From contig DATLNO010000077.1 of NCBI GenBank assembly GCA_035536715.1, positions 9,221-73,220 on the forward strand: a stretch of DNA of 64,000 nucleotides, read 5' to 3'. Each line of letters starts with the position of its first letter. The first letter of the stretch is position 1. Positions 34,300-52,826 of this stretch are shown here, in pieces. Under the pieces are notes generated by a model. That model saw only the letters and a list, made by a program, of their open reading frames with translations, was not told where the DNA came from and did no database searches. A program made the position numbers and the translations under genes. This stretch comes from Solirubrobacteraceae bacterium (lineage in GTDB: Bacteria; Actinomycetota; Thermoleophilia; Solirubrobacterales; Solirubrobacteraceae).

Positions 34300-35223
34300 A
34301 TGCGGACCGGTGTGATCGTCCCCGTCCACGGCTGGCCCTCGCTGCTGGCCGAGACGCTCGACGGGATCCTCGCGCAGGACCCGCGGCCCGAGGTCGTGCT
34401 CGTCGTCGACGACGGGTCGACCGAGCCGGTCGCGCTGCTTCCCGACCACACGGGGCACTGCCGTGTCGTCCGCCACCCCGAGCGCCGCGGCCTGGCGTAC
34501 GCGCGTGCGACGGGTCTGGCGCAGCTCGAGGGCTGCGAGCTCGTCGCCTTCTGCGACGCAGATGACGTCTGGGAACCCGGCAAGCACGCTGCGCAGCTCG
34601 CGGCGCTCGCCGCTCATCCGAGGGCGGCGGCCTGCTTTGGCAGCGCGTCGATCGTCGGCCTCGACGGGCGCCCGACGGGTGAGCAGTGGGACGAGCTCGC
34701 GGCGGGCTGCCATACGGCGGACGCGCTTTTGCCGCTGCTCTACGAGCGCAACCCGCTCTGCGTCTCCAGCGTGCTGCTGCGGCGCGACGCGGTGGTCGAG
34801 GCAGGCGGTCTCGAGTTCGAGCTGCCGCGCGCCGAGGACTGGGATCTCTGGCTGCGCCTGCTCGCGCTTGGCCACGCGTTCGTGGTGGAGCCGGCCGCCA
34901 GGGTCCGCTACCGCCGCTCTCCGGGCGCGCTGTCGGGCGACATCGCCGGGCTCGCGAGCGCGCAGCTGCACGTGCACGCGGCGCATGCCGGGCTCGTCGA
35001 CGAGGTCGTCCGCCGCCGCGTCGAGGCCGCCGATCGCGTGGCGCATGCGCGTGGGCTCGTGCGCCGGCGCGAGTACGACGCGGCGCGTGAGGAGCTGCAG
35101 CGCGCGTTCGAGCTGCGCCCGCCCGATCGGAGCGAGCGCGCTCTTGCGGCGCTGCTGGCCGTCCCGGGGCTGCGGTCGGCGCTCGGTCGCCGCGATCCGT
35201 ACTCGGCGGGCGCGCGTCCCTAG
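34300..35223 (+). CDS. glycosyltransferase family 2 protein
   Basis: GVIVPVHGWPSLLAETLDGILAQD...VVDDGSTEP...FCDADD (GT-A, DxD). ATG at 34300. Confidence 0.75.
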   Translation: MRTGVIVPVHGWPSLLAETLDGILAQDPRPEVVLVVDDGSTEPVALLPDHTGHCRVVRHPERRGLAYARATGLAQLEGCELVAFCDADDVWEPGKHAAQLAALAAHPRAAACFGSASIVGLDGRPTGEQWDELAAGCHTADALLPLLYERNPLCVSSVLLRRDAVVEAGGLEFELPRAEDWDLWLRLLALGHAFVVEPAARVRYRRSPGALSGDIAGLASAQLHVHAAHAGLVDEVVRRRVEAADRVAHARGLVRRREYDAAREELQRAFELRPPDRSERALAALLAVPGLRSALGRRDPYSAGARP

Positions 35224-37283
35224 ATCGCGGCGGGCGGCACGAGCACGCGCAGGCGCTCGGTCAGCGAGATCGTGCGCCAGCCGGCGTTGATCGCCCACTG
35301 CTGCGCCGGGGTGTTCTGGCGCGCGATGTCGCTTCTGCCGATGACGAGCACGTCGTAGTCGCCGTGCGACAGCGCCTCGCGAAAGCTCGCCTCGTCGCGG
35401 TACGGCGTGAGGAAGCCGTCGACGAACTCACCGACGAACTCGACCTCGTTGTCGATCCGCGTCCCGAATGCCGGCCACACGGGGGACAGATCGCCGAGCG
35501 ACCAGTACGTGGCGAACTCGAGACCGACGCGCTTGTCGGCCGGCGCCGCACGCAACAGCGCGTTGAGCCCGGGGTCGAAGTGGCTGTAGCGGTCGGCGTT
35601 GATGCGGTCCTGCATGCGATCGGCGAGAGCAAGCCCGACGACTGCCGCCCCGAGCGTGGCGGCGACGAGCACGACGCGGCGCTCGCGCAGGCGCCAGAGC
35701 AGGTACGCGGCGCCTGCGATCGCAGCGAGCGCGACCGTGGTGGCGACGAGGTCACGGCCCACGACTTGGTAGCCGTCGTAGGCGCCGAACAGCACGGCGA
35801 GCGTGAGCAGCGCCTCCAGCGCAAGGCCCGCGAGCGGCCGCACTCGACCCGCGACCCAGGCGAGCGCCGGCAGCGCGAGCATGAGCGCAGGGATCGCGTA
35901 GCGCGTGTTGGCGTGGGCAAGCGACGGGGTATCGCGCAGACCGAGCGCCGTCGCCGGGGTCAGGGTGTAGAGCGCGGCGAGCACCGCCGCGCCGGCGGCG
36001 AGGACAAGGACGCGCGGCTCGGCCGCGCGACGACCGGGCCGCGCGAGCACGACCGCCGCGACGAGCGCGAGAGCGCAGATGACCGGCACGCCGCCGAGCC
36101 CCTCGACGATCTTGATCGCGACCTTTGCGAGCACGTCGGGCTGGCCGGAGTAGTCGGCGATCGAGAATCCGACCTCGTCGCGGATGACGTCGCGCGGGGC
36201 GGAGAAGATCGTCACGCCGAACGGCTTGACGTTGAGCGGGAACACGGGATTGCCCGACTCGGCGAGATTGCGGGCGAGCCACGGCAGCATCCCGAGGAAC
36301 GCGAGGACGCCCACGAGCACGCCATCGCGCAGGACCGGACCCGCGTCGCCGCCGCCCGCCCGTCGCGCGGCCAGCAGCCGCGCCCCGAGCCAGATCGCGA
36401 CGACGACGGGCACCGAGCTGACGCCATACCACTTCGTCCCGGCCGCGATCCCGAGCGCGACGCCGGCGAGCACGAGGTCCGAGCGCAGGTTCGTCCGCGC
36501 ATGGCGCAGGAGGTACAGCACGCCGCAGGCGTACGTCGTCCACATGATCGCGTCGGGCAGGGCGCGCGGAATCGTCACAAAGCCGACGACCGGCAGCGAT
36601 ACGACGGCCGCGGCAGCGATCAGCGACGCCGCGGGCGGCGCGCGCAGCTCGCGCGCGACCGCGAAGGCGGCGACCGCGGTCGTCGCGAGGAAGAACACGC
36701 TCGGCAGGCGGGTGAGGAAGTCGTTGTGCCACGGCAGGATCGTGCTGAGCAGCACGACGTCGCCGTTGTTGGGGTAGTTGCCCTGGGCCAGCAGCGGGAC
36801 GAACTGGTCGATCTTCCACATCGTCCCGTCCTGGATCCAGCGGCCGATCCCCGGCAGGTGAAACGACGTCGGGTCGTCGCCGATGACCTCGTCGCCGCCC
36901 CAGCGGCCGAGGTTGGCGAGCGCGGCCACCGCCGTGAAGCCGCAGGCCAGCGCGGCCATGGCCCTGGAGGCGCGGCTGCTCGGGGGCGACGGTGGCCGCG
37001 GTTCCGGGTCCCCGGCGATGGCCGCGGGTCGGACGAGCGCCGCAAGGCCGACGGCGAGCGCGGCGGCGGCGATCACCGTGCCGCGCGAGAGGACGCCCAG
37101 CATCAGCGGCACGAGGTGCACGCCGATCAGGACGCCCGTGCCGGTCACGACGCTCGCAAGCACGGTCTCGAGCGGGTCGAGATGGCGCAGCCGGCGGCGC
37201 ACGACGAGCGCCGTCGCCACGATGACCGCGGCGAGCATGACGACGAAGAGAGCCGCCCCGGCGAGAAAGTCCTGCAAGGGCAT
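35220..37283 (-). CDS. polytopic membrane protein, GT-C-like (ArnT/PMT-type glycosyltransferase) candidate
   Basis: 687 aa. At least 12 hydrophobic segments are followed by a soluble C-terminal domain of about 130 aa. The family assignment is by architecture only. Confidence 0.5.
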   Translation of the reverse strand: MPLQDFLAGAALFVVMLAAVIVATALVVRRRLRHLDPLETVLASVVTGTGVLIGVHLVPLMLGVLSRGTVIAAAALAVGLAALVRPAAIAGDPEPRPPSPPSSRASRAMAALACGFTAVAALANLGRWGGDEVIGDDPTSFHLPGIGRWIQDGTMWKIDQFVPLLAQGNYPNNGDVVLLSTILPWHNDFLTRLPSVFFLATTAVAAFAVARELRAPPAASLIAAAAVVSLPVVGFVTIPRALPDAIMWTTYACGVLYLLRHARTNLRSDLVLAGVALGIAAGTKWYGVSSVPVVVAIWLGARLLAARRAGGGDAGPVLRDGVLVGVLAFLGMLPWLARNLAESGNPVFPLNVKPFGVTIFSAPRDVIRDEVGFSIADYSGQPDVLAKVAIKIVEGLGGVPVICALALVAAVVLARPGRRAAEPRVLVLAAGAAVLAALYTLTPATALGLRDTPSLAHANTRYAIPALMLALPALAWVAGRVRPLAGLALEALLTLAVLFGAYDGYQVVGRDLVATTVALAAIAGAAYLLWRLRERRVVLVAATLGAAVVGLALADRMQDRINADRYSHFDPGLNALLRAAPADKRVGLEFATYWSLGDLSPVWPAFGTRIDNEVEFVGEFVDGFLTPYRDEASFREALSHGDYDVLVIGRSDIARQNTPAQQWAINAGWRTISLTERLRVLVPPAAI

Positions 37284-38033: not shown

Positions 38034-38081
38034 TGGATCCGTCCGGAACTTCGGCCCGCAGAACTTGCGGACGGATCCACT
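38032..38081 (+). terminator. strong hairpin immediately after the methyltransferase stop (14-bp perfect stem)
   Basis: AGTGGATCCGTCCG (38032-38045) pairs with CGGACGGATCCACT (38068-38081). The 22-nt loop contains GAACTT twice. There is no U-tract. Confidence 0.4.
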
Positions 38082-38133
38082 GGTGAGCCTGACCGCTCGG
38101 TCGTGGCGCGCGGGTCTGCGCCGGTACCCGACA

Positions 38134-40217: not shown

Positions 40218-41477
40218 ATGCTGTTGTGCGCTCTCGCGATGCTGGCCGCTGCTGGCAGCGCGGCGCCGGCGTTCGCGCAGGAGCCGGCGACCGCGTTCGC
40301 CGCGGACTCGACGCAGATCGGCGTCATCAGCCTCCTGTTCTTCGGTGCCCAGGGCGGCGAGGTGCAGTACTACGAGCGCGTCAGTGATCGCCTGAAGGCG
40401 CTCGGCCGGGCGCGCGCCGCCCCAGGCGCGGTGACGACGCTGAAGGACGCCACGACCTGGTCGTGTGATCGCCTCGAGCGCCGCTTCGAGGCGCGCGCCG
40501 TCCTGCCCGACGGCAGCACCGCGACGGGCGCATACGGCGTGCGGACCGCGTCGTGCGCGCAGCGCTTCCGGGTCGAGGCGCCGCGTCGCGTCGCCGCGGG
40601 AAAGCTGGCCCGCGTCCGCGTGATCGACCGCTGGAACATCGGCGGCATCAAGCCGATGCTCTGCATCACGCCGCCGGCGGGCCGGCGGGAGTGCAGGACG
40701 CTGGCCTTCGCGCGGGCAGTCGCCGTCGCGACGCGCCGCTTCCGCGCCGAGCAGCGCGGGCGCTGGCGTGTCGAGCTACGGGTCCGCGATCACCGCGTGC
40801 GGCGCGACGTCGCCGTCGGCGGCGACACGACGGTCAGACAGGTCGTGCTGCCGAGCGTGCTCGCGACCGGAGACTCGACAATGCAGGGCATCGACAGCTA
40901 CCTGTCCGACGAGCTGGCCGACGACGCTGCGCTGCGCAGCGACATCCAGCTCGGCAGCGCGATCAGCCGCGGCGACTTCTGGGCGACGTACGCGGCGACG
41001 CAGACCAAGCGCCTGCACCAGCGCGTCAGCGTGATGTCGATCGGCGCGGCGTTCGACGGCTATCCGCTGACGCCGCCCGGCGGCGCTCCGGTCGAGTGCT
41101 GCGAGGAGCCGTGGGTTGCGCTGTACGCCGAGCGCGTCCGGGCGATCATGGGGACCTACCTGCGGCGCGGGCGCGGGCGCGTGTTCTGGCTGACGCCGCC
41201 GCTGCCTCGCGACCCGGTGCGGCTGAAGATCACGACCGCGATCACGTTGGCGATCGAGCGTGCCGCGACGGGACTTCTGGGCGTGAGGGTCGTCCGCGTC
41301 GACCAGCTCTTCGCGCCGGCAGGGGTCTACACGGAGGTCATCCGCTACCGCGGCCGCGACGTCCGCGTGCGCGATCCCGACGGCGTGCACCTCAACATCT
41401 CGGGCACCGCGATCATGGCCCAGCTGCTGGCCCCGCAGATCCGGGCGGCGCTGGCGCAGACGAAGCCCGCGGGCTGA
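40218..41477 (+). CDS. secreted protein with a C-terminal SGNH/GDSL hydrolase domain
   Basis: Signal peptide MLLCALAMLAAAGSAAPAFA. Block I is VLATGDSTMQG and block V is DPDGVHLN (DxxH). I did not recognise the N-terminal 220 aa or so. Confidence 0.6.
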   Translation: MLLCALAMLAAAGSAAPAFAQEPATAFAADSTQIGVISLLFFGAQGGEVQYYERVSDRLKALGRARAAPGAVTTLKDATTWSCDRLERRFEARAVLPDGSTATGAYGVRTASCAQRFRVEAPRRVAAGKLARVRVIDRWNIGGIKPMLCITPPAGRRECRTLAFARAVAVATRRFRAEQRGRWRVELRVRDHRVRRDVAVGGDTTVRQVVLPSVLATGDSTMQGIDSYLSDELADDAALRSDIQLGSAISRGDFWATYAATQTKRLHQRVSVMSIGAAFDGYPLTPPGGAPVECCEEPWVALYAERVRAIMGTYLRRGRGRVFWLTPPLPRDPVRLKITTAITLAIERAATGLLGVRVVRVDQLFAPAGVYTEVIRYRGRDVRVRDPDGVHLNISGTAIMAQLLAPQIRAALAQTKPAG

Positions 41478-41832: not shown

Positions 41833-42462
41833 GTGATCGAGGAGCTGGTGCCCGCGACCGTCACCGTGGTCGCGACGCGCGCCGACCTCGGAACCGAGTT
41901 GTTCGCGGATGAGCTGCGCGCGCTGGGATCCGCGGTCCATTCGCGTCGCCGCGAGTTCGAGACGGGTCGCGCATGCGCCCGCCGAGCGCTCGCCGAACTC
42001 GGTCTGCGCGAAGCTGTCGCGGTCGGGAGCGGGACGCGCGGCGAGCCGCTCTGGCCGGCCGGCGTGGTCGGCAGCATCACGCACTGCGCGCGCTACAGGG
42101 CCTGCGCCGTCGCACGCGACCACGACGTGCTCGCGGTCGGCATCGACGCCGAGCTCGACGCCCCGCTGCCTGCCGGCGTGCTCGCGACGATCGCGAGCCG
42201 CGTCGAACAGCGCGCGCTGGCGGCGCACGGCGCCGGCGCCTGCTGGGACCGCGTGCTGTTCAGCGCCAAGGAGGCGGTCTTCAAGGCGTGGTATCCGCTG
42301 ACCGGGCAGGCGCTCGCGTTCGAGGACGCCGACGTGCGGATCGACCCCGACCACGGCACGTTCACGGCGCGGCTGCTCGTCGACGGCCCGCTGCGCGAGC
42401 TGCACGGGCGCTGGGCTGTTGCCGGCGGGATCGTCGCGACCAGCGTGGCGGTGGCGCGATGA
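41833..42462 (+). CDS. 4'-phosphopantetheinyl transferase (Sfp/EntD type)
   Basis: GSITHC, GIDAE and FSAKEAVFKAW motifs. GTG start. Its stop overlaps the PKS ATG (ATGA at 42459-42462). Confidence 0.8.
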   Translation: MIEELVPATVTVVATRADLGTELFADELRALGSAVHSRRREFETGRACARRALAELGLREAVAVGSGTRGEPLWPAGVVGSITHCARYRACAVARDHDVLAVGIDAELDAPLPAGVLATIASRVEQRALAAHGAGACWDRVLFSAKEAVFKAWYPLTGQALAFEDADVRIDPDHGTFTARLLVDGPLRELHGRWAVAGGIVATSVAVAR

Positions 42463-45400
42463 GACAGCGAACCGTGGCGCTGCCCTGGGTCCTCTCCGCG
42501 CAAGATGAGCCCGCGCTGCGCGAGCAGGCGACCCGGCTGAAGGCACACCTCGAGGCGCACCCGCAGCTGCACACCGCCGACGTCGGCTGGTCGCTCGTCG
42601 CCGGCGGCGCCCATCTTGAGCGTCGCGCGGTCGCGATCGGGGAGGACCGCAAGGCGTTGCTCGGCGGGCTCGAGGCAATCGCATCGGGCGCGCCCGCGCA
42701 GGGCGTCGCACGCGGTATCGCGCACGCAACGACCGCGCACCGGCTTGCCTTCGTCTTCCCCGGCCAGGGCTCGCAGTGGCCGGGCATGGCGCTCGAGCTC
42801 GCGGCGCAGTCGCCGCTGTTCGCCGCCAGGTTGCAGGCCTGCGAGGACGCGCTCTCCCCGCACATCGACTGGAAGCTCGACGACGTCCTGCGCGCCGCGC
42901 CCGACGACGAGCTCTGGGACCGCTCGGACATCGTCCAGCCGTCGCTGTTCTGCGTGATGGTCTCGCTCGCCACCCTGTGGCGCTCCTTCGGCGTCCGTCC
43001 CGACGCGGTCGTCGGCCACTCGCTCGGGGAGATCTCGGCCGCCTGTGTCGCGGGGATCCTGTCGCTCGAGGATGCCGCTCGCGTCGCGGCGCTGACGAGC
43101 CGCGCCCTGCACGAGCTCGGCGGGGACGACGGGATGGTCCTCGTCGACCTCGGCGCCGAGCAGCTCGAGGAACGGACCGCGCAGATCGACGGCCGGCTGA
43201 CGCTCGCCGCGTTCAACGGTCCCCACGCGATCGTCGTCTCCGGCGAGCAGCCCGCGCTCGACGAGCTGCTGGCCGGCTGCGAGGCCGACGGGATCCGGGC
43301 GCGCCGGATTCGCGTGGACGGCACCTCTTCGGTCGCGCACTCGAGCCAGATCGAGGCGATCCGCGAGCGCCTCGCGCGCGATCTCGCGCCCGTCGAGCCG
43401 CGCCCGAGCGGCGTGACGTTCTACTCGTCGGTCACCGGCGAGCCGATCGACTACACCGAGCTCGGCCCCGAGTATTGGTACCGCAGCCTGCGTGAGCCGG
43501 TGCGCTTCGAGCAGGCGACGGCCGCGCTCGTGCGCGACGGCGCGACGGCCTTCGTCGAGTCCAGCCCGCACCCGGTGCTGACGTTCGCGGTGGAGGGGAC
43601 GATCGAGTCGGCTGCAGCGGCGGGCACGGGATTGGCCACGCCGATCGGCGATGTACCTCACGCGGTGATCGGGTCGCTGCGCCGCGACGGCGGGCTCGCA
43701 CGCTTTCTCGTCTCGGTCGGGGAGGCGCACGCCACCGGGATCGAGCTTGACTGGACGCCCGCCTTCGCCGCGGCGCGGCCGACGCGCATCGACCTGCCGC
43801 TGCGCGAAACCGCTTCGGCGGCGGTCGCCGATGTGCCGGTCGCGGCGGCCGCGGACTCGCTGCTGGCCGACGACCAGCGCACCGACGCCGGACTGCTCGC
43901 CCTCGTGCGCGAGCACGCCGCCGCGGTGCTCGCGCTCGGGTCTGCCGACGCCATCGCGCCGCGCCGCGCGTTCAAGGAAATGGGTATGGAGTCGCTGCAG
44001 GGCGTCGAGCTGCGCAACCGCCTCGCCCAGGTGACCGGGCTGCGCCTGCCGTCGACCCTCGTCTACGACCATCCCACGCCGGCCGCCGTCGCCGACCGGC
44101 TCGCCACGATCCTGTCGGGGGCGCAGCGCGCCTCCCGAGCGACCGTCCGCCTGAGCGCCCACCACGACGAGCCGATCGCGATCGTCGGGATGAGCTGCCG
44201 CTACCCCGGCGGCGTGCGGTCCGCGCAGGACCTCTGGGATCTCGTCGCTGCCGGCACCGACGCGATCGGCCCGTTCCCCGAGGACCGCGGCTGGGACCTC
44301 GACGGCCTCTACGACGAAGATCCAGATGTAACCGGCACGAGCTACGTGCGCAGCGGCGGCTTTCTCTACGACGCCCCGGACTTCGACGCGGCGTTCTTCC
44401 AGATCGCGCCCCGCGAGGCGTCGGTGATGGACCCCCAGCAGCGGATCGTGCTCGAGACGTCGTGGGCGGCGCTCGAGGACGCCGCCATCGACCCCGAGCG
44501 GCTCGCGGGCTCTGCGGCCGGCGTCTTCCTCGGCGTCAGCTCACAGGACTACGGCTCGTTCCTGCCGGGCTTCGCGACCGAGTACGAGGGCCTGAGGATG
44601 ACCGGGTCGCTGACGAGCGTCGTCTCGGGCCGCGTTTCCTACGCGCTCGGGCTGGAAGGCCCCGGGGTCACCGTCGACACGGCCTGCTCCTCCTCGCTCG
44701 TGGCGCTGCACCTCGCCTGCCAGTCGCTGCGCACTGGCGAGTGCTCGCTCGCGCTTGCCGGCGGCGTCACCGTGCTCTCGTCGCCGGGGATGTTCATCGA
44801 GTTCAGCCGCCAGCGCGGCCTCGCGCCGGACGGGCGCAGCAAGGCGTTCGCCGCGAGCGCCGACGGCGCCAGCTGGGCCGAGGGCGCGGGCGTGCTCGTC
44901 ATCGAGCGGCTGTCGGACGCGCGCCGCAACGGCCATCGCGTGCTCGGCCTCGTGCGCGGCACGGCGACCAATCAGGACGGCGCGAGCAACGGGCTGTCGG
45001 CGCCCAGCGGGCCGTCCCAGGAGCAGGTCATCCGCCAGGCGCTCGCGAACGCCGGCGTGTCGCCGGCCGACGTGGACGCCGTCGAGGCGCACGGGACGGG
45101 CACGACGCTCGGTGATCCGATCGAGGCCGGAGCGCTGCTTGCGACCTACGGCCAGGACCGCGTGGACGGGCCGCTCTGGCTGGGCTCGATCAAGTCGAAC
45201 ATCGGCCACTCGCATGCGGCGGCGGGCGTCGCCGGCGTGATCAAGATGCTCATGGCGATGCGCGCCGGCGTCCTGCCGCGCACCCTGCACGTCGACGCGC
45301 CGACGCCGCACGCCGACTGGTCAGGGGGGCGGGTCGAGCTCCTGACCGAGCAGCGCGACTGGCCGCGGGCGGGCCATCCAGTCCGTCCTCGGCGCGCGGG

Positions 45401-48400
45401 CGTCTCGGGCTTCGGGATCAGCGGGACGAACGCGCACGTCGTGCTCGAAGAGGCGCCGGCGGCGGAGTCCCACACCACGGCAGCGGACCTTCCCGCGGTG
45501 CCGCTCATCCTGTCGGCGAAGTCGCGGGGCGCGCTGCGGGAGCAGGCTCGGGCGCTGCACGAGCACATGGTGCGGCGGCCGCAGGTCGTGCCGGCCGACG
45601 TCGGCTGGTCGCTCGCGACCGGGCGTGCGCGCTTCGCGCACCGCGCCGCGGTCGTCGGCACCGACCGCGCGCGGCTGCTCGCGGGCCTCGACGCCGTCGC
45701 GAGTGGGATGCCCGCCGACGGCGTCGCCGCCGGCAACGCCCGCGACGCCGCGAGGGTCGCGTTCGTGTTCCCGGGCCAGGGCTCGCAGTGGCTCGGCATG
45801 GCGCTCGACCTGTGGGACACCGCCGACGCGTTCGGGGCGCAGATGCAGGCTTGTGCCGACGCGCTGCGCCCGCACACCGGCTGGGAGCTGCGCGACGTCA
45901 TCGCGGGAGCGCCCGGGGCACCGGCGCTCGAGCGCATGGACGTCGTCCAGCCGGCGTCGTTTGCCGTGTTCGTCTCGCTCGCCGCGCTGTGGCGCTCCTA
46001 CGGTGTCGAGCCGGCGGTCGTCGTCGGCCACTCGCAGGGCGAGATCGCCGCCGCGTACGTCGCCGGCGCCCTGACATTGCAGGACGCCGCGCGCGTCACG
46101 GCGCTGCGCAGCGCCGCGCTCGTCGACCTCGCCGGCGCGGGCGGGATGATGTCGGTCTTCCTGCCCGCGAGCGAGGTGCTCGAGCGGATCGAGCGCTTCG
46201 ACGGCCGGATCTCGCTGGCCTCCTACAACAGCCCGCGCTCGACGGTCGTCGCGGGCGAGCCGCAGGCGCTGCGCGAGCTGCTCGCGGAGTGCGAGGCCGC
46301 CGGCGCGCGCGCGCGGATGATCGCCGTCGACTACGCGTCGCACTCCCAGCAGATCGAGTCGATCCGCGCGCGCCTGCTCGAGGACCTGCGGCCGATCGCG
46401 CCGGTCAGCACGCAGATCCCGCTCTACTCGACGACGACCGCCGGGCTGATCGACGGCACCCGGCTCGACGCCGAGCACTGGTATCGCAACCTGCGCGAGC
46501 CGGTCCGCTTCGAGCAGGCCACGCGTGCGCTCGTCGACGACGGCGTGACGGCGTTCATCGAATCGAGCCCGCACCCGGTCCTGACGTGGGCCGTGCAGGA
46601 GACCGTCGACGATGCGGCGACCGATGGCGGGCGCGATCGGATCGCCGTCGTCGGCTCGCTGCGCCGCGACGAGGGCACGCTCGCGTGCTTTCTCTCGTCC
46701 GCGGGGGAAGCCTTCGCCGGCGGTGTCGAGGTCGACTGGGAGGCCGCGTTCGCCGGCGCCGGTGCGCGCCGCGTCGGCCTGCCGACCTACCCCTTCCAGC
46801 GCACCCGCTTCTGGTTCGAGCAGCGCGCGGGAGCAGGCGGGGGAGACGGGTCGCTCGCTGCGGCCGGCATCGGCGCGGCCGAGCACCCGCTGCTCGGCGC
46901 GGCGGTCGAGCTCGCCGGCGGCGACGGCTGCCTGCTGACCGGCCGCATCGCCTCGTCCGGCCATTCCTGGCTCAACGATCACGAGCTGTTCGAGCAGGTC
47001 ACGCTCGCGCAGTCGGCCTTCGCCGAGATGGCGCTGCGAGCGGGCGCCGAGGTTGGCTGCGACACCGTGGAGCAGCTGACCCTGGAGGCGCCGCTCGTGC
47101 TGCCCGCGGTGGGCGGCGTGCGGCTGCAGGTGACCGTGAGCGGCGCGGACGACAGCGGCCGCCGGACGCTCGCGATGCACGCCCGGCCCGACGCGGACGG
47201 ACTGGCCGACGCCGCCTGGGTGCGCCACGCGACGGGCACGCTCAGCGAGGCCGCGACCGCCGACCACGAACCGCTGCCCGCGCAGTGGCCGCCTTCCGGT
47301 GCGGTCGCGCTCGACCTCGACGAGCTCTACGACCGCCTCGCCGCCAACGGGCGCACGTACGGCGCGGAGCTCCAGGTGGTGCGCGCCTGGCGGCTCGGCG
47401 ACGAGCTGTTCAGCGAGGTCGGGCTTTCCGAGAAGGAGCTCGTCGACGGGGCGCGCTTCGCGATCCACCCGGTGCTCCTCGACGCGGCGCTGCATCCGGC
47501 GATCGCGGCGCGCGACCCGGCGAGTGTCTCGCCGGCGCTCGAGTGCAACGGCCTGCGCGTGCAGCAGCCCGGCACGCTCGCGCTGCGTGTGCGTCTCTCG
47601 CCCGGGGAAGGCGACACCCTGCGGTTGACGGCGACGGACGAGCGCGGGGCGCTCGCCCTGACCATCGACGCCGTCGCCATGGCGCCGCCGCAGGACGGCC
47701 GCGCGGCAGCCGGTCGCGACGCGGCCCTCGAGGCGCTCTACCGCATCCGCTGGACGCCGCTCGCCGCGTCCGCCTCCTCGAGCGGCGGCGCGACGGCGCA
47801 GCTCGACGCCGTCGACATCGTCGCCCCACGGACCGTCACCGAGGCGCTCGCGCTCGTGCAGGGCTGGCTCGTCGAGGACCGTCCGCCGGACGCTCGCCTC
47901 GCCGTGCTCGTGCCCGGCGCGGGCGCGGTACTCGACGGCGAGTCGCCCGACCCCGAGGCGTCGGCGATCCGCGGCCTGCTGCGCAGCGTGCAGTCCGAGC
48001 ATCCTGACCGCGTCGTCACGCTCGACGTACACGAGGCCAGTCCCCGGGAGATCGCCGCCGCGGTCGCGACGGGCGCGGCCGAGGTCGCGCTGCGCGATGG
48101 CGCGGTCCTCGTGCGCCGGCTCGCGCGCGCGCCTGCCGACACGGCGCCATCCGGCACCTGGCGGCTCGCGCCCGAGCGCGCCGGTGCGCTCGTCGCGGCG
48201 GCGCCCGACCACGGCGACGGCGACCGTCCGCTGCGCAGCGGCGAGGTGCGGTTGGCCGTCCGCGCCGCCGGCGTGAACTTCCGCGACGTGCTGATCGCGA
48301 TCGGCGTCCACGGGGCTCAGCTCGGCGCCGAGGCCGCCGGCGTCATCGCGGAGGTCGGGCCCGACGTGGACCGCCTGCGTCCCGGCGATCGCGTCATGGG

Positions 48401-51137
48401 GATCGTCCCCGGCGCCTTCGGTCCGCTGGCCGTCGCCGACGCCCGCACGCTCGTTCCGATCCCCGCCGAGTGGTCGTTCGCGCAGGCGGCCACCGTCCCG
48501 GTCGCCCACGCCACGGCATACCTCGCGCTGCACGACATCGCGCGGCTGCAGCCGGGGGAGCGCGTGCTGATCCACGCCGCCGCGGGCGGCGTCGGGATGG
48601 CCGCCGTCGCGCTCGCTCAGCGGACCGGAGCGGAGGTCTTCGCGACGGCGAGCCCGGCGAAGTGGGACGCGCTTGGAGCGCTCGGGATCGACGGCGAGCA
48701 TCTCGCCAGCTCGCGCACGACGGACTTCGCCGCGAAGTTCGAGCGGGTCGACGTCGTCCTGAACTGCCTGACGGGCGAGCTGACCGATGCCTCGCTCGCG
48801 ATCCTGGCGCACGGTGGGCGCTTCGTCGAGCTTGGCAGCGCCGACGTTCGGGATCCCGCGGCGATCGCCGCCGCATTCCCTGGCGCGACGTACGAGACCG
48901 TCGACCTCTTCGGCACGAAGCCGAAATCGCTCGGCAAGATCCTGCGTGCGGCCGCCGCGCAGGCCCAGCCGCTGCCGATCACGGCCTGGGACGTGCGCGA
49001 CGGCTCACAGGCGCTGGCGTTCATGAGCCAGGCCCGCCACATCGGCAAGGTCGTGCTGACCGTGCCGCACGCGCTCAATCCCGAGGGGACGGTGCTCGTC
49101 ACCGGTGCAACGGGCGGCCTCGGCGCCGTCGTCGCCGAGCACCTCGCGCGCGAGCACGGCGCCCGCCGCCTGCTGCTTGTCAGCCGCCGCGGTCCGGACG
49201 CGCCGGGGGTCGACTCCCTGTGCGAGCGCCTGGGTCAGCTCGGCTGCGAGGCAACCGTCGTCGCCTGCGACGTCGGAGACCGCGCCGCGCTCGCCGCGCT
49301 GCTCGAGACGATCGACACGGGCAACCCGCTGACGGCGATCGTCCACGCCGCGGGAACGCTCGACAACGGCATGGTCGAGTCGATCGACGAGGCGCGCCTT
49401 GCTGGCGTCATGCGCCCGAAGGCGACCGCCGCTCGCTGGCTCGACGAGCTCACGCGCGGCGAGGACCTCGCGGCGTTCGTGCTGTTCTCGTCGGTAGCGG
49501 CGACGTTCAGTCACCCCGGTCAGGGCAACTACGCCGCCGCAAACGCCTACCTCGACGCGCTTGCCCAGCAGCGCCGCACCAATGGGTTGCCCGCGACCGC
49601 TGTCGCCTGGGGACTGTGGGGCACGGGCAGCGGGATGTCGACGCGCCTGAGCAAGGAGGACATCGAGGTGCTGGCGGCCGACACGGGTCAGCGCGAGTTG
49701 CCCGTCGCGCAGGCGCTGGCGCTGCTCGACGTCGCCATCGGCCATCGTGAGGCGCTGCTCGTCGCCACGACGCTCGACCACGCATCGCTGCGCGCGCAGG
49801 CGCGGTCGGGCGTGCTGCCGGCGCTGCTGAGCGACCTCGTGCGCGCAACCAAGCGGACCACGGCCCGCGGGGGCGCTGCTGCTCGCGCGGGCGCGACCGG
49901 CGGCTCGCTGGCACAGCAGCTCGCCGCTGCCGCACCGCAGCAGCGCGACGAGCTCGTGCTCGAGCTCGTCCGCGCCCAGGCCGCCGCCGTGCTCGGTCAC
50001 GCGTCGGGAGGCGACGTGCCGCCCGACCGCCCGTTCAAGGAGCTCGGCTTCGACTCGCTCGGGTCGGTCGTGCTGCGCAACCGCCTCGGGCAGATCACCG
50101 GCCTGCGCCTGCCGTCGACGCTTGTCTTCGATCACCCGACGCCGCTGGCGATGGCGGCCTTCATGCGCGCGCTGGCCGAGCAGGACGAGCACGCCCAGGA
50201 GGGCGCGCAACCCACGGCGCCGGTCACCGTGCCGGCTTCCGAGCCGCTCCCCGCGATCGGGATGGCGCTGCTCGCCGAGCCGATCCGCCAGGAGGTCGCG
50301 CCGAGCGCCAACGGCCACGGCCCGCACGCGTCGTTGCCGGCCGGTGCGGCGCACGACGGGTCCCACGTCGCCGTAGGCGGCTACCGTGGCGCCGTGCTCA
50401 GCTCACTCGCCGGCGCCGTGCGGACCCTGCGCTTGCGCGCCTGGATCCTGGCGACGCGGGCACGCCTTGCGCGGCTGGGTTGCACGTTCGTCGTCGAGAT
50501 CGACGGGACGCCGCGCTTCGACGAGCTGCCGCGGATCGTGACCGACGCCGTCGGCGCGGGCGGCGGCTCGCTGACGATCAGGATCGGTCGTGGGTGCCGC
50601 TTCGGCCGCGGGCTGACGCTCGACCTCTGGACGCACGCCGACAGTGTCCTGGAGATCGGCGACCGCTGCCAGTTCCAGGACCGCATTCGCCTGCAGCCGT
50701 GGGGCGGCGCGATCCGCTTCGGCGCGCAGGTGCGCGTGCGCGACGGCGCCGAGCTGAAGTCCAAGGGCGAGCTGCTCGTCGGCGCCGACTCGTTCATCGG
50801 GCGCAACACGGCCGTGCACTGCCACGAGCGCATCGAGTTCGCCGATCACGTGAACCTCGCCGAGGGCGTGAACGTCATGGACTCCGACCACACGCACGAC
50901 GGCAGCGATACGTACGTCGCGCGTCAGAAGATCGTGTCGGCGCCGGTCGTGGTGCAGAGCAACGTCTTCGTCGGGACCAACGCGCTGATCCTGCGCGGCT
51001 CCCACGTCGGGCGCAACGTGATGATCGCGACCGGCGCGGTGCTCACGGGCGGCGAGTATCCGGAGTGCTATCTGCTGGCGGGGGCGCCGGCGCAGCCGCT
51101 GCGGCCGCTGGAGCCCGACGACCCCATACCGTCCTGA
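42459..51137 (+). CDS. type I polyketide synthase: AT-ACP loading didomain + KS-AT-DH-ER-KR-ACP + C-terminal hexapeptide-repeat acyltransferase domain
   Basis: Single open frame of 2892 aa. The motifs are listed under the domain features below. ATG at 42459 was chosen rather than track start 41973, whose first 162 codons overlap the PPTase gene. Confidence 0.9.
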   Translation: MRQRTVALPWVLSAQDEPALREQATRLKAHLEAHPQLHTADVGWSLVAGGAHLERRAVAIGEDRKALLGGLEAIASGAPAQGVARGIAHATTAHRLAFVFPGQGSQWPGMALELAAQSPLFAARLQACEDALSPHIDWKLDDVLRAAPDDELWDRSDIVQPSLFCVMVSLATLWRSFGVRPDAVVGHSLGEISAACVAGILSLEDAARVAALTSRALHELGGDDGMVLVDLGAEQLEERTAQIDGRLTLAAFNGPHAIVVSGEQPALDELLAGCEADGIRARRIRVDGTSSVAHSSQIEAIRERLARDLAPVEPRPSGVTFYSSVTGEPIDYTELGPEYWYRSLREPVRFEQATAALVRDGATAFVESSPHPVLTFAVEGTIESAAAAGTGLATPIGDVPHAVIGSLRRDGGLARFLVSVGEAHATGIELDWTPAFAAARPTRIDLPLRETASAAVADVPVAAAADSLLADDQRTDAGLLALVREHAAAVLALGSADAIAPRRAFKEMGMESLQGVELRNRLAQVTGLRLPSTLVYDHPTPAAVADRLATILSGAQRASRATVRLSAHHDEPIAIVGMSCRYPGGVRSAQDLWDLVAAGTDAIGPFPEDRGWDLDGLYDEDPDVTGTSYVRSGGFLYDAPDFDAAFFQIAPREASVMDPQQRIVLETSWAALEDAAIDPERLAGSAAGVFLGVSSQDYGSFLPGFATEYEGLRMTGSLTSVVSGRVSYALGLEGPGVTVDTACSSSLVALHLACQSLRTGECSLALAGGVTVLSSPGMFIEFSRQRGLAPDGRSKAFAASADGASWAEGAGVLVIERLSDARRNGHRVLGLVRGTATNQDGASNGLSAPSGPSQEQVIRQALANAGVSPADVDAVEAHGTGTTLGDPIEAGALLATYGQDRVDGPLWLGSIKSNIGHSHAAAGVAGVIKMLMAMRAGVLPRTLHVDAPTPHADWSGGRVELLTEQRDWPRAGHPVRPRRAGVSGFGISGTNAHVVLEEAPAAESHTTAADLPAVPLILSAKSRGALREQARALHEHMVRRPQVVPADVGWSLATGRARFAHRAAVVGTDRARLLAGLDAVASGMPADGVAAGNARDAARVAFVFPGQGSQWLGMALDLWDTADAFGAQMQACADALRPHTGWELRDVIAGAPGAPALERMDVVQPASFAVFVSLAALWRSYGVEPAVVVGHSQGEIAAAYVAGALTLQDAARVTALRSAALVDLAGAGGMMSVFLPASEVLERIERFDGRISLASYNSPRSTVVAGEPQALRELLAECEAAGARARMIAVDYASHSQQIESIRARLLEDLRPIAPVSTQIPLYSTTTAGLIDGTRLDAEHWYRNLREPVRFEQATRALVDDGVTAFIESSPHPVLTWAVQETVDDAATDGGRDRIAVVGSLRRDEGTLACFLSSAGEAFAGGVEVDWEAAFAGAGARRVGLPTYPFQRTRFWFEQRAGAGGGDGSLAAAGIGAAEHPLLGAAVELAGGDGCLLTGRIASSGHSWLNDHELFEQVTLAQSAFAEMALRAGAEVGCDTVEQLTLEAPLVLPAVGGVRLQVTVSGADDSGRRTLAMHARPDADGLADAAWVRHATGTLSEAATADHEPLPAQWPPSGAVALDLDELYDRLAANGRTYGAELQVVRAWRLGDELFSEVGLSEKELVDGARFAIHPVLLDAALHPAIAARDPASVSPALECNGLRVQQPGTLALRVRLSPGEGDTLRLTATDERGALALTIDAVAMAPPQDGRAAAGRDAALEALYRIRWTPLAASASSSGGATAQLDAVDIVAPRTVTEALALVQGWLVEDRPPDARLAVLVPGAGAVLDGESPDPEASAIRGLLRSVQSEHPDRVVTLDVHEASPREIAAAVATGAAEVALRDGAVLVRRLARAPADTAPSGTWRLAPERAGALVAAAPDHGDGDRPLRSGEVRLAVRAAGVNFRDVLIAIGVHGAQLGAEAAGVIAEVGPDVDRLRPGDRVMGIVPGAFGPLAVADARTLVPIPAEWSFAQAATVPVAHATAYLALHDIARLQPGERVLIHAAAGGVGMAAVALAQRTGAEVFATASPAKWDALGALGIDGEHLASSRTTDFAAKFERVDVVLNCLTGELTDASLAILAHGGRFVELGSADVRDPAAIAAAFPGATYETVDLFGTKPKSLGKILRAAAAQAQPLPITAWDVRDGSQALAFMSQARHIGKVVLTVPHALNPEGTVLVTGATGGLGAVVAEHLAREHGARRLLLVSRRGPDAPGVDSLCERLGQLGCEATVVACDVGDRAALAALLETIDTGNPLTAIVHAAGTLDNGMVESIDEARLAGVMRPKATAARWLDELTRGEDLAAFVLFSSVAATFSHPGQGNYAAANAYLDALAQQRRTNGLPATAVAWGLWGTGSGMSTRLSKEDIEVLAADTGQRELPVAQALALLDVAIGHREALLVATTLDHASLRAQARSGVLPALLSDLVRATKRTTARGGAAARAGATGGSLAQQLAAAAPQQRDELVLELVRAQAAAVLGHASGGDVPPDRPFKELGFDSLGSVVLRNRLGQITGLRLPSTLVFDHPTPLAMAAFMRALAEQDEHAQEGAQPTAPVTVPASEPLPAIGMALLAEPIRQEVAPSANGHGPHASLPAGAAHDGSHVAVGGYRGAVLSSLAGAVRTLRLRAWILATRARLARLGCTFVVEIDGTPRFDELPRIVTDAVGAGGGSLTIRIGRGCRFGRGLTLDLWTHADSVLEIGDRCQFQDRIRLQPWGGAIRFGAQVRVRDGAELKSKGELLVGADSFIGRNTAVHCHERIEFADHVNLAEGVNVMDSDHTHDGSDTYVARQKIVSAPVVVQSNVFVGTNALILRGSHVGRNVMIATGAVLTGGEYPECYLLAGAPAQPLRPLEPDDPIPS
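42744..43610 (+). other. PKS domain: loading acyltransferase (AT1)
   Basis: FVFPGQGSQWPGM, and GHSLGE (Ser codon about 43020). The specificity position reads SVAHS rather than HAFH or YASH. It is preceded by a KS-AT-linker-like segment of about 95 aa but no KS. Confidence 0.75.
43890..44115 (+). other. PKS domain: ACP1
   Basis: FKEMGMESLQGVELRNRL (Ser codon 43991-43993). Confidence 0.7.
44166..45455 (+). other. PKS domain: ketosynthase
   Basis: PIAIVGMSCRYPGG, DTACSSS (Cys codon 44684-44686), EAHGTGT, and NIGHS. It ends at GTNAHVVLEEAP. Confidence 0.85.
45755..46610 (+). other. PKS domain: extender acyltransferase (AT2), methylmalonyl-type signature
   Basis: FVFPGQGSQWLGM, GHSQGE, and VDYASHS (YASH motif). 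Confidence 0.8.
46880..47690 (+). other. PKS domain: dehydratase (divergent active-site motif)
   Basis: HPLLG start, then WLNDHELFEQVTLAQSAF where the consensus is HxxxGxxxxP. The His is kept; the Gly and Pro are replaced. Confidence 0.6.
48155..49070 (+). other. PKS domain: enoylreductase
   Basis: VRAAGVNFRDVLIAIG and HAAAGGVGMAAVALAQ (NADPH site). Confidence 0.8.
49085..49650 (+). other. PKS domain: ketoreductase (catalytic subdomain)
   Basis: GTVLVTGATGGLG, LDN at the LDD position, and GQGNYAAANAYLD. The structural psi-KR region lies at about 47700-48150. Confidence 0.8.
49950..50175 (+). other. PKS domain: ACP2
   Basis: FKELGFDSLGSVVLRNRL (Ser codon 50055-50057). Confidence 0.75.
50385..51134 (+). 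other. PKS C-terminal domain: left-handed beta-helix (hexapeptide-repeat) O-acyltransferase-like, in the place of a TE
   Basis: IGDRCQFQDRIRLQP.., VGADSFIGRNTAVHCHERIEFADHVNLAEGVNVMDSDHTHD, PVVVQSNVFVGTNALILRGSHVGRNVMIATGAVLTGG, LLAGAPAQPL. This is the LacA/WcaF/NodL-type pattern with a candidate catalytic His in SDHTH. Confidence 0.6.
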
Positions 51138-52107
51138 CCGGGGTCAGCAGCGGTGGCGGCCCGCCCGGCAGCCCCAGGCCGCCGAGGATCCCGCGCACCT
51201 CGCGCGGGTCCTCGCGGCGGGCGAGGCACAGCGCCGCGCCGGCGAGCGCGTCGGCGAGCAGCGCGACGGTGAGCCCGGCCCGCTGCGGCCGGCTCCAATG
51301 CAGCGCCGCGTAGCGGCGCAGCGACGCGACCCACTCGGCCCGCATCCGCGCCGGGTCGGCGCGCTGGGCGCGACCGACGCTCGTCCCGTAGCCGTGTGCT
51401 GCGGTCGCGGCGGGCACGATCTCGATGCCGCGGCCGGCGTCGGTCAGGCGGCGACAGAGGTCGCCGTCGTTGAAGAACAGCGCAAAGCGCTCGTCCAGCG
51501 GACGCGGCTGCAGATCACTGCGCCGCGCCATGATGCAGGCCGCGGCCGGGCAGAACACGGCGACGGGGTCGCTCGGCGGGCCGCCGGCCCAGAGGTCCTC
51601 GTAGCGGCGCGTCGCCGCCGCGCGGCCGCCGCGCAGCGCCGCGTCGGCGCGCCGGCCCACGGTCGTGTAGGCCCACAGCACCCCGGCGAGGCCGATGTCG
51701 CGGCGCGCGTGCAACTGCGGCGTGCCGTCGGGATCGTGCAGCAGCGCGGCGGCGATCGCGACCTGCGGCCGCGTGGCGAGGTGGTCGCGCAGCGCGCGGG
51801 CGCAGCCGGCGTCCATCACGCAGTCGGGGTTGAGGAGCAGCACGTGCTCGCCGGCCGAGGCGTCGAACGCCGCGTTGACCGCTGCGGCGAAGCCCGTGTT
51901 GGAGCCCATCTGCAGCAGCTGCACGCCGTCGGCCGCCCGCGCCGCGACGCGCGCGACGGTGTCGTCGCGTGACGCGTTGTCGGCGACGGTCACGTCCACC
52001 GTCAGATCCTCGCCGGCCTGCGCCAGGGCCGCGTCGAGGCACGCTGCGATCTCGTCGCCGTGCTCGTAGGTGACGATCAGGACCGATAAGCCGGGTGCGC
52101 TGGGCAC
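51043..52107 (-). CDS. glycosyltransferase family 2 protein (rhamnosyltransferase-like)
   Basis: LSVLIVTYEHGDEIAACLDA..., ADNASRDDT, NTGFAAAVNA and LLLNPDCV. GTG start. Its 3' end overlaps the PKS 3' end by 95 nt (convergent). Confidence 0.75.
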   Translation of the reverse strand: MPSAPGLSVLIVTYEHGDEIAACLDAALAQAGEDLTVDVTVADNASRDDTVARVAARAADGVQLLQMGSNTGFAAAVNAAFDASAGEHVLLLNPDCVMDAGCARALRDHLATRPQVAIAAALLHDPDGTPQLHARRDIGLAGVLWAYTTVGRRADAALRGGRAAATRRYEDLWAGGPPSDPVAVFCPAAACIMARRSDLQPRPLDERFALFFNDGDLCRRLTDAGRGIEIVPAATAAHGYGTSVGRAQRADPARMRAEWVASLRRYAALHWSRPQRAGLTVALLADALAGAALCLARREDPREVRGILGGLGLPGGPPPLLTPVRTVWGRRAPAAAAAAPAPPPADSTPDTRRP

Positions 52108-52196: not shown

Positions 52197-52826
52197 CTAC
52201 GGAGTGTTGGTCAGCGTGATGCCACCGATGGGCGTCGCGATGATCGACGACTCCGATAGGCGGAAGCTCGTGCCCGCGCTGCATTCGAGGAAGAACTCCG
52301 ATGGCGTGGCGACGGTGCGGGTGCTCTGCATGAACAGCGTCGCCGGTGCCGTCTTGCTGCTGACGACGACGTTCTGCAGTGACTCCGTGGCGTCGCCCGC
52401 GAGGTCGAGCCGGCAGCGGCCCTCGGGGCTGCTGCGCTCCGGAAGCAGCGGGTTCTGCGCCGCTGGCAGCGCGGTCATGACGGTCGACGCGGTCACCGCG
52501 TAGGCGCCCGGCGGGACCGTCAGCGACAGGACCCTCGCCGCGATGTTCGGAGGCTGGCCCTCGGGGCCCGCCTTGCGGGCACCGTGATAGACGGTGGCGG
52601 CCCCGCCACCGCCCGAGGCGGTCTTCAGCTTGTCCGCCGTGATGGTGCCGTTCTTGATGTCCCTGCCCTGGAGCGAGCCATCCTTGATGTCGGCAGAAAG
52701 GATGATGTTGTTCTTGATCTGCTTGCTCGACGTGATCATCGTCGCCGCGTATGCGGTCCCGGCAAGGGCCGCGAAGAGCGCGATGCCCGAGATGACGAGT
52801 GCTGGGCTGGGCCGTCGAAGCTTCAT
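52197..52826 (-). CDS. hypothetical secreted/anchored protein
   Basis: RBS GGGGAGAA, then signal/anchor MKLRRPSPALVISGIALFAALAGTAYA and a short repeated motif IKDGSLQGRDIKNGTITADKLK. It is visibly less GC-rich than its neighbours. Confidence 0.5.
   Translation of the reverse strand: MKLRRPSPALVISGIALFAALAGTAYAATMITSSKQIKNNIILSADIKDGSLQGRDIKNGTITADKLKTASGGGGAATVYHGARKAGPEGQPPNIAARVLSLTVPPGAYAVTASTVMTALPAAQNPLLPERSSPEGRCRLDLAGDATESLQNVVVSSKTAPATLFMQSTRTVATPSEFFLECSAGTSFRLSESSIIATPIGGITLTNTP

Follow-up and report, generated by a model that had tools for sequence, protein, structure and literature searches.

Modular polyketide synthases (PKSs) such as DEBS1 and LipPks1 begin with a type B loader, in which an acyltransferase (AT), preceded by a linker-like segment, and an acyl carrier protein (ACP) stand before a ketosynthase (KS)-AT-(dehydratase (DH)-enoylreductase (ER)-ketoreductase (KR))-ACP module. 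The Arg at the position of FabD Arg117, a residue that binds malonyl-type substrates by their free carboxylate, is gone from these loader ATs. Type A loaders, as in the tylosin, pikromycin and FD-891 GfsA systems, have the order KSQ-AT-ACP, KSQ being a KS with Gln in place of the active-site Cys. In KSQ-type loaders the AT has the same conserved Arg as extender ATs and takes dicarboxylic CoA esters only, a restriction that does not apply to the ATs of AT-ACP loaders (PMC5655351). A third group, Mas, Pks2, Pks3/4 and Pks5, consists of one KS-AT-DH-psiKR-ER-KR-ACP set with methylmalonyl as extender, and the products are esterified to envelope acceptors. MAS and Pks2 have no loader, their ACP is followed by a mere 11-13 residues, and priming is by long fatty acyl chains (PMC2443190). 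Here we compare with these systems a 2892-amino-acid type I PKS of Solirubrobacteraceae bacterium, a soil actinobacterium of the class Thermoleophilia. Its gene lies at 42459-51137 on the forward strand of the window, a stretch of 64,000 nucleotides (GenBank assembly GCA_035536715.1, contig DATLNO010000077.1, positions 9,221 to 73,220).

This protein is probably a self-sufficient PKS of modular descent, in which one fully reducing module, specific for methylmalonyl, would act together with a loading didomain and with a release domain for acyl transfer that is part of the same protein. Its self-contained layout, a loader that appears to have evolved independently and to have left surviving intermediates, and a putative left-handed beta-helix (LbH) release domain make it unusual.

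Domain layout and kinship of the synthase

Translation, Pfam, NCBIfam and domain-by-domain BLAST give the order linker remnant-AT1-ACP1-KS-AT2-DH-psiKR-ER-KR-ACP2-hexapeptide (LbH) domain (Table 1). The window has a G+C content of about 72-75%, and the single long open reading frame (ORF) with coding-type GC3 spans 41913-51137. The PKS starts at the ATG at 42459, translationally coupled to an upstream 4'-phosphopantetheinyl transferase (PPTase) gene whose stop codon it overlaps as ATGA, and its stop codon is at 51135-51137. The catalytic residues for loading, condensation and full reduction are all present, as are both carrier sites. The original prediction, made from the letters of the window and a list of its ORFs, had described the same order as far as the second ACP, and Pfam and NCBIfam agree with it. 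The motifs it quoted for AT1, KS and AT2 were all located in the translation, and its fully reducing loop is borne out by intact catalytic residues. The end it gave, 50175, is that of ACP2, and the gene continues to 51137.

Within the reducing region, the psiKR carries PF22953 in the precomputed annotation. The Gly and Pro of the DH motif HxxxGxxxxP are not conserved in the window protein. These positions vary across the whole family, so their absence is no sign of inactivation, and an inactive DH was rejected because the His is invariant family-wide and the second catalytic position is always Asp or Glu.

The single KS-AT-DH-psiKR-ER-KR-ACP set is that of MAS, and to this extent the label "MAS-like" first given to the protein holds. 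Kinship points elsewhere. Among structures in the PDB, the KS scored 520-631 bits with DEBS modules and Lsd14 versus 377-381 with the MAS of M. tuberculosis and M. smegmatis. The linker-AT1 segment scored 394 with DEBS AT5 and 268 with the avermectin loading AT versus 180-186 with MAS, and DH-psiKR-ER-KR scored 673 (8G7W) and 564 (SpnB, 3SLK) versus 246-266 with MAS, along which (5BP4/9D2Y) the reducing region also aligns. Modules of the DEBS, Lsd14 and SpnB type are thus the nearest to the window KS, AT and reducing region. KS identity is about 70% to multimodular PKSs of the same order (genomes G169 and G029) and 65-69% to actinomycete modular PKSs, compared with 43-47% to true members of the Mas/Pks2 family. 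The latter were represented by seven loci in the phylum, encoding proteins of 2097-2149 amino acids that score 3274-4248 bits with the NCBIfam Pks2 model; the window protein scores 1208 and does not reach the cut-off of 2400.

The phylogenies agree with these scores. The KS tree places the family as sister (100/94) to the multimodular KSs of G169, inside a 100/100 modular clade, and the Mas/Pks2 KSs form a distant clade (100/100). MAS ATs carry VASH with GHSLGE or GHSMGE; AT2 (YASH, GHSQGE, MDVVQ, Arg) is nested in the AT tree among YASH/GHSQGE ATs and apart from HAFH ATs, as expected for the methylmalonyl-type extender AT that had been proposed. The KS, both ATs and the reducing region all fall with modular cis-AT PKSs and separately from MAS, which also lacks a loader of the kind present here. 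Trees, identities and structural ranking together indicate that this PKS descends from modular cis-AT assembly lines and not from Mas/Pks2 synthases. A KS phylogeny had been suggested as a check of the first label, and the clustering with modular PKSs counts against it, although the partner module expected of such PKSs was not found in the genome. In the same bacterial family, genome G065 has two more type I PKS ORFs, each about 2300 amino acids long (contigs C125 and C62, loci L021 and L022). Their KSs are 49% identical to the window KS and lie outside both the modular and the Mas/Pks2 clades, and they represent a further PKS type.

A colinear multi-module assembly line was not found. The PKS contains the only type I KS found in a genome that is 93% complete in 314 contigs, other matches being of FabF size or thiolase-like, and no second PKS gene was found within 8-10 kb of the relatives' PKS genes, on contigs of 0.05-1.9 Mb. 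Compared with DEBS1 and LipPks1, the window protein has one module, no partner proteins and an LbH domain in place of a thioesterase (TE).

The loading didomain and its proposed history

Residues 8-444 correspond to the KS-AT linker, AT and post-AT linker of DEBS module 5 (PDB 2HG4 residues 468-887, 394 bits). Since they align end to end, the earlier description of a linker-like N-terminus without a KS is real. Two stretches of the PKS match Pfam CurL-like_PKS_C, and two match the RhiE-like linker. A type B loader is defined by an AT at the N-terminus that has no KS before it, is followed by an ACP and lacks the conserved Arg (PMC5655351), and this is what the window protein has; the N-terminal KSQ of type A is absent, the linker alone being left.

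AT1 has Thr213 at the FabD Arg117 position, where AT2 has Arg1217. It reads GHSLGE instead of GHSQGE and has a 3-residue insertion in the motif at the YASH position (VDGTSSVAHS versus VDYASHS). AT1 retains the catalytic Ser and His and ranks with the best conserved domains, at 83-94% identity across the clade of relatives that lack an N-terminal KS. The Arg is replaced by Thr in all 16 relatives with the GHSLGE form. How rare this is can be seen from a survey of 498 ATs taken from the 150 best-scoring representative proteins: Arg is present at this position in 482, 12 of the 16 others are N-terminal loader ATs without a KS, and 11 of those 12 carry Trp, usually with an xAAHS-type motif. Thr was found, among the 498, only in the PKS family of the window. 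(The all-against-all AT1 search behind this table could not be used to find close loaders, because scores sum over the many ATs of giant multimodular PKSs, which topped the ranking; only the residue table was kept.) AT1 is also outside the canonical clade of loader ATs (Arg to Trp, xAAHS) in the AT tree. It thus differs from the loaders of DEBS1 and LipPks1 in its Thr in place of Trp, its insertion and its position in a separate clade beside the KSQ-partnered ATs of its own family. Pfam, the DEBS alignment and this survey all support the loading AT-ACP didomain that had been noticed at the outset as real and unusual.

Relatives were sought with the C-terminal region among 5.8 billion proteins clustered at 90% identity. 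Full-length relatives make up 27 clusters, and fused PKS-LbH proteins occur in 2 of 301 sampled genomes of the class, in keeping with the earlier remark that the combination is atypical. The 15 closest relatives begin with a linker stub, as the window protein does, and eight deeper ones (P0016, P0018, P0019, P0022 and P0024-P0027) begin with an extra KS. In seven of the eight, all but P0022, the active-site Cys of this KS is changed to Gln (DSGQSSS, DTGQSSS or DCGQSSS) and both His residues are kept, the signature of a KSQ decarboxylase. The deeper relatives thus have the loader type of the tylosin, pikromycin and GfsA systems, with DxGQSSS and an Arg/YASH AT. The AT behind the KSQ is of the GHSQGE/Arg/YASH form in six relatives, for which a propionyl starter derived from methylmalonyl is therefore predicted. 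In P0016, at a locus with the same gene order as the window, an intact KSQ precedes an AT of the Thr/GHSLGE/insertion type that marks the window clade.

P0022 (3363 amino acids) has an N-terminal KS with Ala at the active site and a degenerate HGTGT motif (DGSAS). Its loader AT nests in the family's extender-AT clade, beside the extender ATs of P0002, P0011 and P0017, as if by gene conversion, and the protein looks like a second, different route of loader decay. Four further proteins (P0020, P0021, P0023 and P0028) were called N-terminally truncated, with starts that fall within the KS, the linker or AT2. Contigs of 0.27-3.2 Mb carry three of the four, whose genes may be frameshifted or may be pseudogenes.

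A tree built on the KS-AT2 region groups the KS-less proteins in a single nested clade (100/98), with P0016 as its sister (81/72), P0022 outside and KSQ-bearing proteins on both sides of the root. With outgroups, the KSs of the window protein, P0011, P0017, P0016 and P0022 are monophyletic (100/100). KS-less proteins start 3-8 residues (the window protein 7) before LPWVLSA, the motif that follows the KSQ in the relatives. The AT tree pairs the Thr-type loader ATs as sisters (94/69) with the Arg-type loader ATs of the same family, and it places the Thr type within the methylmalonyl extender clade, apart from canonical Trp-type loaders. Turning to the carrier, ACP1 has GMESL in 13 of 15 KS-less relatives (the other two were missed by the motif search), GMDSL in P0016 and GFDSL in the other KSQ-type relatives, behind Arg-type loaders. 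The residue before the phosphopantetheine Ser (window 43983-43997) is therefore Glu in those 13 and Asp in P0016 and all KSQ types, and it changed together with the loss of the KSQ.

The simplest reading of these sequences is a loader history in three stages, in which a KSQ-AT-ACP loader had its AT reprogrammed and then lost the redundant KSQ by a clean deletion at the linker. The N-terminal stub would then be the post-KSQ linker, left because the loader descends from a KSQ-AT-ACP loading module. By its residues and its place in the AT tree, the AT-ACP loader of the window clade is of independent origin, distinct from the canonical Trp type. A similar route was predicted for other synthases. 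The loading ATs of the polyene eurocidin and rimocidin systems, which are of extender-AT ancestry, hydrolyse only acyl-CoAs; because they take acyl-CoA starters directly, the KS upstream is redundant. Lines that start with an AT were predicted to arise by its loss, and no present-day eurocidin cluster of this kind was reported (Zhang et al. 2026, PMC12843615). P0016 corresponds to their transitional state and the window clade to the predicted end-point. The present case differs in that all three stages, as predicted from sequence, occur in one orthologous family of a Thermoleophilia lineage and in a single-module enzyme, and in its motifs (Thr plus insertion here, GAAH there).

Putative release domain, probable product and rival readings

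The region after ACP2 matches maltose and galactoside O-acetyltransferases and other hexapeptide transferases in the PDB (E about 1e-7), which is clear at the superfamily level. The best NCBIfam matches, WbbJ/WcaF/MAT, are far under their cut-offs (WbbJ 49.6 versus 243), and Pfam Hexapep reaches 22.1 with a cut-off of 27. No other part of the protein is conserved as strongly as this region (90-96% within the close clade). Its DSDHxxDGxD motif is nearly invariant and is shared with stand-alone LbH homologues, 36-44% identical, in five genomes of the class. The neighbours of these homologues (DAG kinase, CorA, a PALP enzyme, a methyltransferase, OMP decarboxylase and PfkB) were considered as a clue to the acceptor; they share nothing with the PKS loci and gave no lead. 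At L001, a locus with the KSQ form, a separate 230-amino-acid hexapeptide-repeat protein (20068-20760) lies between the PKS and the family 2 glycosyltransferase (GT2) gene; it is no close paralogue of the PKS LbH domain (tblastn at 1e-6, no match). At L006 an uncalled gap at about 1015-1770 matches it in size and place.

A literature search turned up no relevant PKS that off-loads its chain by a hexapeptide or left-handed-helix domain. Release onto a sugar has a precedent in Pks13 of mycobacteria, whose TE domain releases the chain onto the sugar trehalose, not onto water (PMC12933137). We propose that the last domain of the window protein would likewise transfer the chain onto a sugar. The TE of Pks13 is an alpha/beta-hydrolase with an acyl-enzyme intermediate, and the window domain is predicted to be a left-handed beta-helix of the MAT/WbbJ/WcaF type.

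It is thus reasonable to propose the following sequence of events. The co-translated PPTase would convert both ACPs to the holo form, and AT1, judging from its motifs and family history, would load a short monocarboxylic acyl-CoA onto ACP1. Propionyl-CoA is the most likely substrate because the ancestral loader made propionyl from methylmalonyl by means of its KSQ and the KS was presumably adapted to it. The starter would pass to the KS while AT2 places (2S)-methylmalonyl on ACP2, and condensation followed by KR, DH and ER action would yield a 2-methyl-branched saturated acyl-ACP2, one round giving 2-methylpentanoyl. The hexapeptide domain could then take the acyl group off ACP2 and attach it to a hydroxyl or amine on an acceptor, probably a sugar supplied by the adjacent GT2 for a cell-envelope glycan pathway. 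The likely product is a reduced acyl group with a 2-methyl branch, primed by propionate and passed on to a glycan acceptor.

How often the module acts is less clear. We put at about even chances a use of one to a few rounds, giving 2-methylpentanoyl or a short deoxypropionate decoration and not a long mycocerosate-like lipid. The dedicated loader, the acetyltransferase-type release domain, the ER losses tolerated in the family and a fungal precedent incline us to short chains. That precedent is LovF of lovastatin biosynthesis, a full-size, fully reducing PKS that extends its chain just once, to a 2-methyl-branched C5 acyl group, which LovD esterifies to the acceptor (PMC10779115). The pair is a model for single-round use only, LovF being a fungal highly reducing PKS with a C-methyltransferase, a malonyl extender and a separate acyltransferase of the alpha/beta-hydrolase type, with no kinship to the window protein. 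As for the ER, its motif is kept in most relatives and lost in six: the domain is deleted in P0018 and P0025/P0026, partly deleted in P0013/P0014, and in P0012 the NADPH motif is destroyed. These are at least three independent losses, and all other domains, including the DH and the LbH terminus, are retained. Products of P0012-P0014, P0018, P0025 and P0026 are therefore expected to be 2-methyl-2-enoyl and not saturated.

Several observations weigh against this picture as a whole. The hexapeptide matches lie under every family cut-off, and support is only moderate (94/69) for Thr-type and Arg-type loader ATs being sisters. All relatives come from metagenomes or metagenome-assembled genomes, with one cluster labelled Thermoleophilia bacterium. 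P0016 retains an intact, slowly evolving KSQ beside its Thr-type AT, so that the Thr-type AT may still accept methylmalonyl-CoA. The lean to short chains is weakened because most characterised bacterial PKS modules that stand alone and reduce fully are iterative, and because iteration is also possible for modular modules. To our knowledge, iterative use of a module has no sequence signature. In addition, a genome in 314 contigs and 93% complete could still be missing a partner module.

Long chains would follow if the protein were a functional analogue of MAS, its module iterating many times to build a long multi-methyl-branched acyl chain as an envelope glycolipid anchor, with the LbH domain in the role of the PapA-type enzymes that carry out acyl transfer in trans for MAS. 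This we regard as possible but doubtful. The reducing domains and the methylmalonyl-type AT are as in MAS, no other type I PKS module was found in the genome besides this fully reducing one, and the GT2, a GT-C and polytopic membrane proteins nearby form an envelope setting that would suit a lipid anchor. Moreover, fully reducing methylmalonyl modules of modular descent are known to iterate, as in BorA5 of borrelidin biosynthesis, and an iterative module is reportedly present in the azalomycin PKS. There is, however, no kinship with the Mas/Pks2 clade; the loader is of a short-chain type and of KSQ descent, which is unlike FAAL priming by a long fatty acid, and the release domain is of the acetyltransferase type. 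With repeated ER loss, what had been a long saturated lipid would become a polyene, which is a drastic shift, and the distribution of the PKS is sporadic, not core. A variant that accommodates the descent, in which an assembly-line-derived module with its newly evolved loader iterates to an oligo-deoxypropionate lipid and the fused beta-helix acyltransferase esterifies an envelope glycan, is likewise possible but doubtful.

The other two rivals concern the start of the chain and the completeness of the machinery. AT1 might still load methylmalonyl (or malonyl) onto ACP1, the module KS decarboxylating it, so that the KSQ was lost without a change of starter. The Thr-type AT beside an intact KSQ on a short branch in P0016, and the place of AT1 inside the methylmalonyl AT clade, would fit. 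We nevertheless judge it improbable, given the loss of the Arg in 16 of 16 members together with the change of GHSQ to GHSL and the remodelled YASH motif. Like changes mark monocarboxylate-loading ATs elsewhere (the 498-AT table; PMC5655351), and loading ATs behind a retained KS hydrolyse only acyl-CoAs (PMC12843615). More improbable still is that the protein is the first of a larger assembly line whose other modules went unassembled, the LbH domain being a tailoring or docking element and not a release domain. The sister relation to multimodular KSs and the fragmented genome speak for it. Yet the related loci have PPTase and GT2 flanks and no further PKS gene nearby, the genome yielded no other type I KS, and the LbH domain is the part most strongly conserved.

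Genomic setting and significance

Table 1. Domains of the PKS and neighbouring genes in the window.
Feature	Position	Strand	Details
GT-C (PMT_2/ArnT-like) polytopic membrane glycosyltransferase	35220..37283	-	Pfam PMT_2, PMT; about 14 hydrophobic segments
DUF459/SGNH (PatB-like) protein	40287..41477	+	weak NCBIfam PatB match
Sfp/PptT-type 4'-phosphopantetheinyl transferase	41833..42462	+	Pfam 4PPT_N and ACPS; NCBIfam PptT/Npt-like 170-180 bits, below cut-off
N-terminal KS-to-AT linker remnant	42459..42740	+	amino acids (aa) 1-94; aligns to DEBS M5 linker from residue 468
AT1, loading acyltransferase	42741..43658	+	aa 95-400; GHSLGE Ser188, Thr213, DGTSSVAHS His294
ACP1, loading	43821..44108	+	aa about 455-550; GMESL Ser512; Pfam PP-binding matches two stretches
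KS, condensing	44169..45293	+	aa 571-945; DTACSSS Cys743, HGTGT His878, NIGHS His917
KS-AT linker, extension module	45300..45743	+	Pfam KAsynt_C_assoc, CurL-like_PKS_C, RhiE-like_linker
AT2, extender, methylmalonyl-type	45756..46730	+	aa 1100-1424; MDVVQ, GHSQGE Ser1192, Arg1217, YASH Tyr1292
DH	46884..47678	+	aa 1476-1740; His1508, Asp1675; Pfam PKS_DH_N, PS-DH
psiKR, structural subdomain	47691..48203	+	aa about 1745-1915; covered by 8G7W, 3SLK, MAS 5BP4 alignments
ER	48216..49058	+	aa 1920-2200; HAAAGGVG NADPH motif; Pfam ADH_N, ADH_zinc_N, ADH_zinc_N_2
KR	49071..49658	+	aa 2205-2400; GATGGLG, LDN at LDD position, Tyr2358; Pfam KR 192 bits
ACP2	49941..50168	+	aa 2495-2570; GFDSL Ser2533; Pfam PP-binding 2503-2568
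LbH off-loading domain (predicted)	50286..51137	+	aa about 2610-2892; conserved helical lead-in and left-handed beta-helix, DSDHxxDGxD
GT2 glycosyltransferase	51043..52107	-	Pfam Glycos_transf_2; convergent at PKS 3' end

The PPTase gene is directly upstream of the PKS in every related locus, and the order PPTase-PKS-GT2 is kept in all those examined (L001, L002, L005/L006 and L008). The GT2 is 73-83% identical in L001, L002, L006 and L008. An assignment of this GT2 as a polyprenyl-phosphate sugar synthase of the GtrB/ArnC/Ppm1 type was considered and set aside, as it has at most one weak hydrophobic segment and its family matches are weak and mixed. The DUF459/SGNH gene occurs in four of five loci, with homologues 51-72% identical beside the PKS in L001, L005 and L008. 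The GT-C gene is present in the window and in L008, where the PMT_2 gene is 57% identical to it, and L008 additionally has an Acyl_transf_3 gene.

Two further genes of the window encode a 713-amino-acid protein (38065-40206, forward strand) with about 12 hydrophobic segments and no Pfam or NCBIfam match, and a 209-amino-acid protein (52197-52826, reverse strand) with an N-terminal signal-anchor-like segment and a 65% identical counterpart beside the GT2 in L002. Both may belong to the same envelope pathway.

With regard to substrates, methylmalonyl-CoA mutase and carboxyltransferase genes are present elsewhere in the genome. No AMP-ligase/FAAL gene was found on the 76-kb PKS contig, and no AMP-binding gene was seen in the related loci. 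Of the two class genomes with the fused PKS-LbH gene, one is that of the window and the other that of a congener with the KSQ form; the enzyme is thus accessory and not core.

The family offers a natural three-stage series from a KSQ loader to an AT-ACP loader, an independent invention using Thr plus an insertion instead of Trp. It also calls for caution, in that lone KS-AT-DH-ER-KR-ACP proteins should not be called "MAS-like" on domain order alone. In practical terms, the compact loader, module and release unit may serve as a minimal chassis for 2-methyl-branched acyl groups, and the PKS would be a clean system in which to study what makes a modular module iterate. Were the iterative lipid to prove true, this would be a convergent counterpart of the mycocerosate/PapA pathways outside mycobacteria, with a release chemistry new to PKSs. 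We know of almost no natural-product chemistry from Thermoleophilia. In this regard, the release domain and its glycan context point to a polyketide-acylated envelope glycoconjugate in this class.

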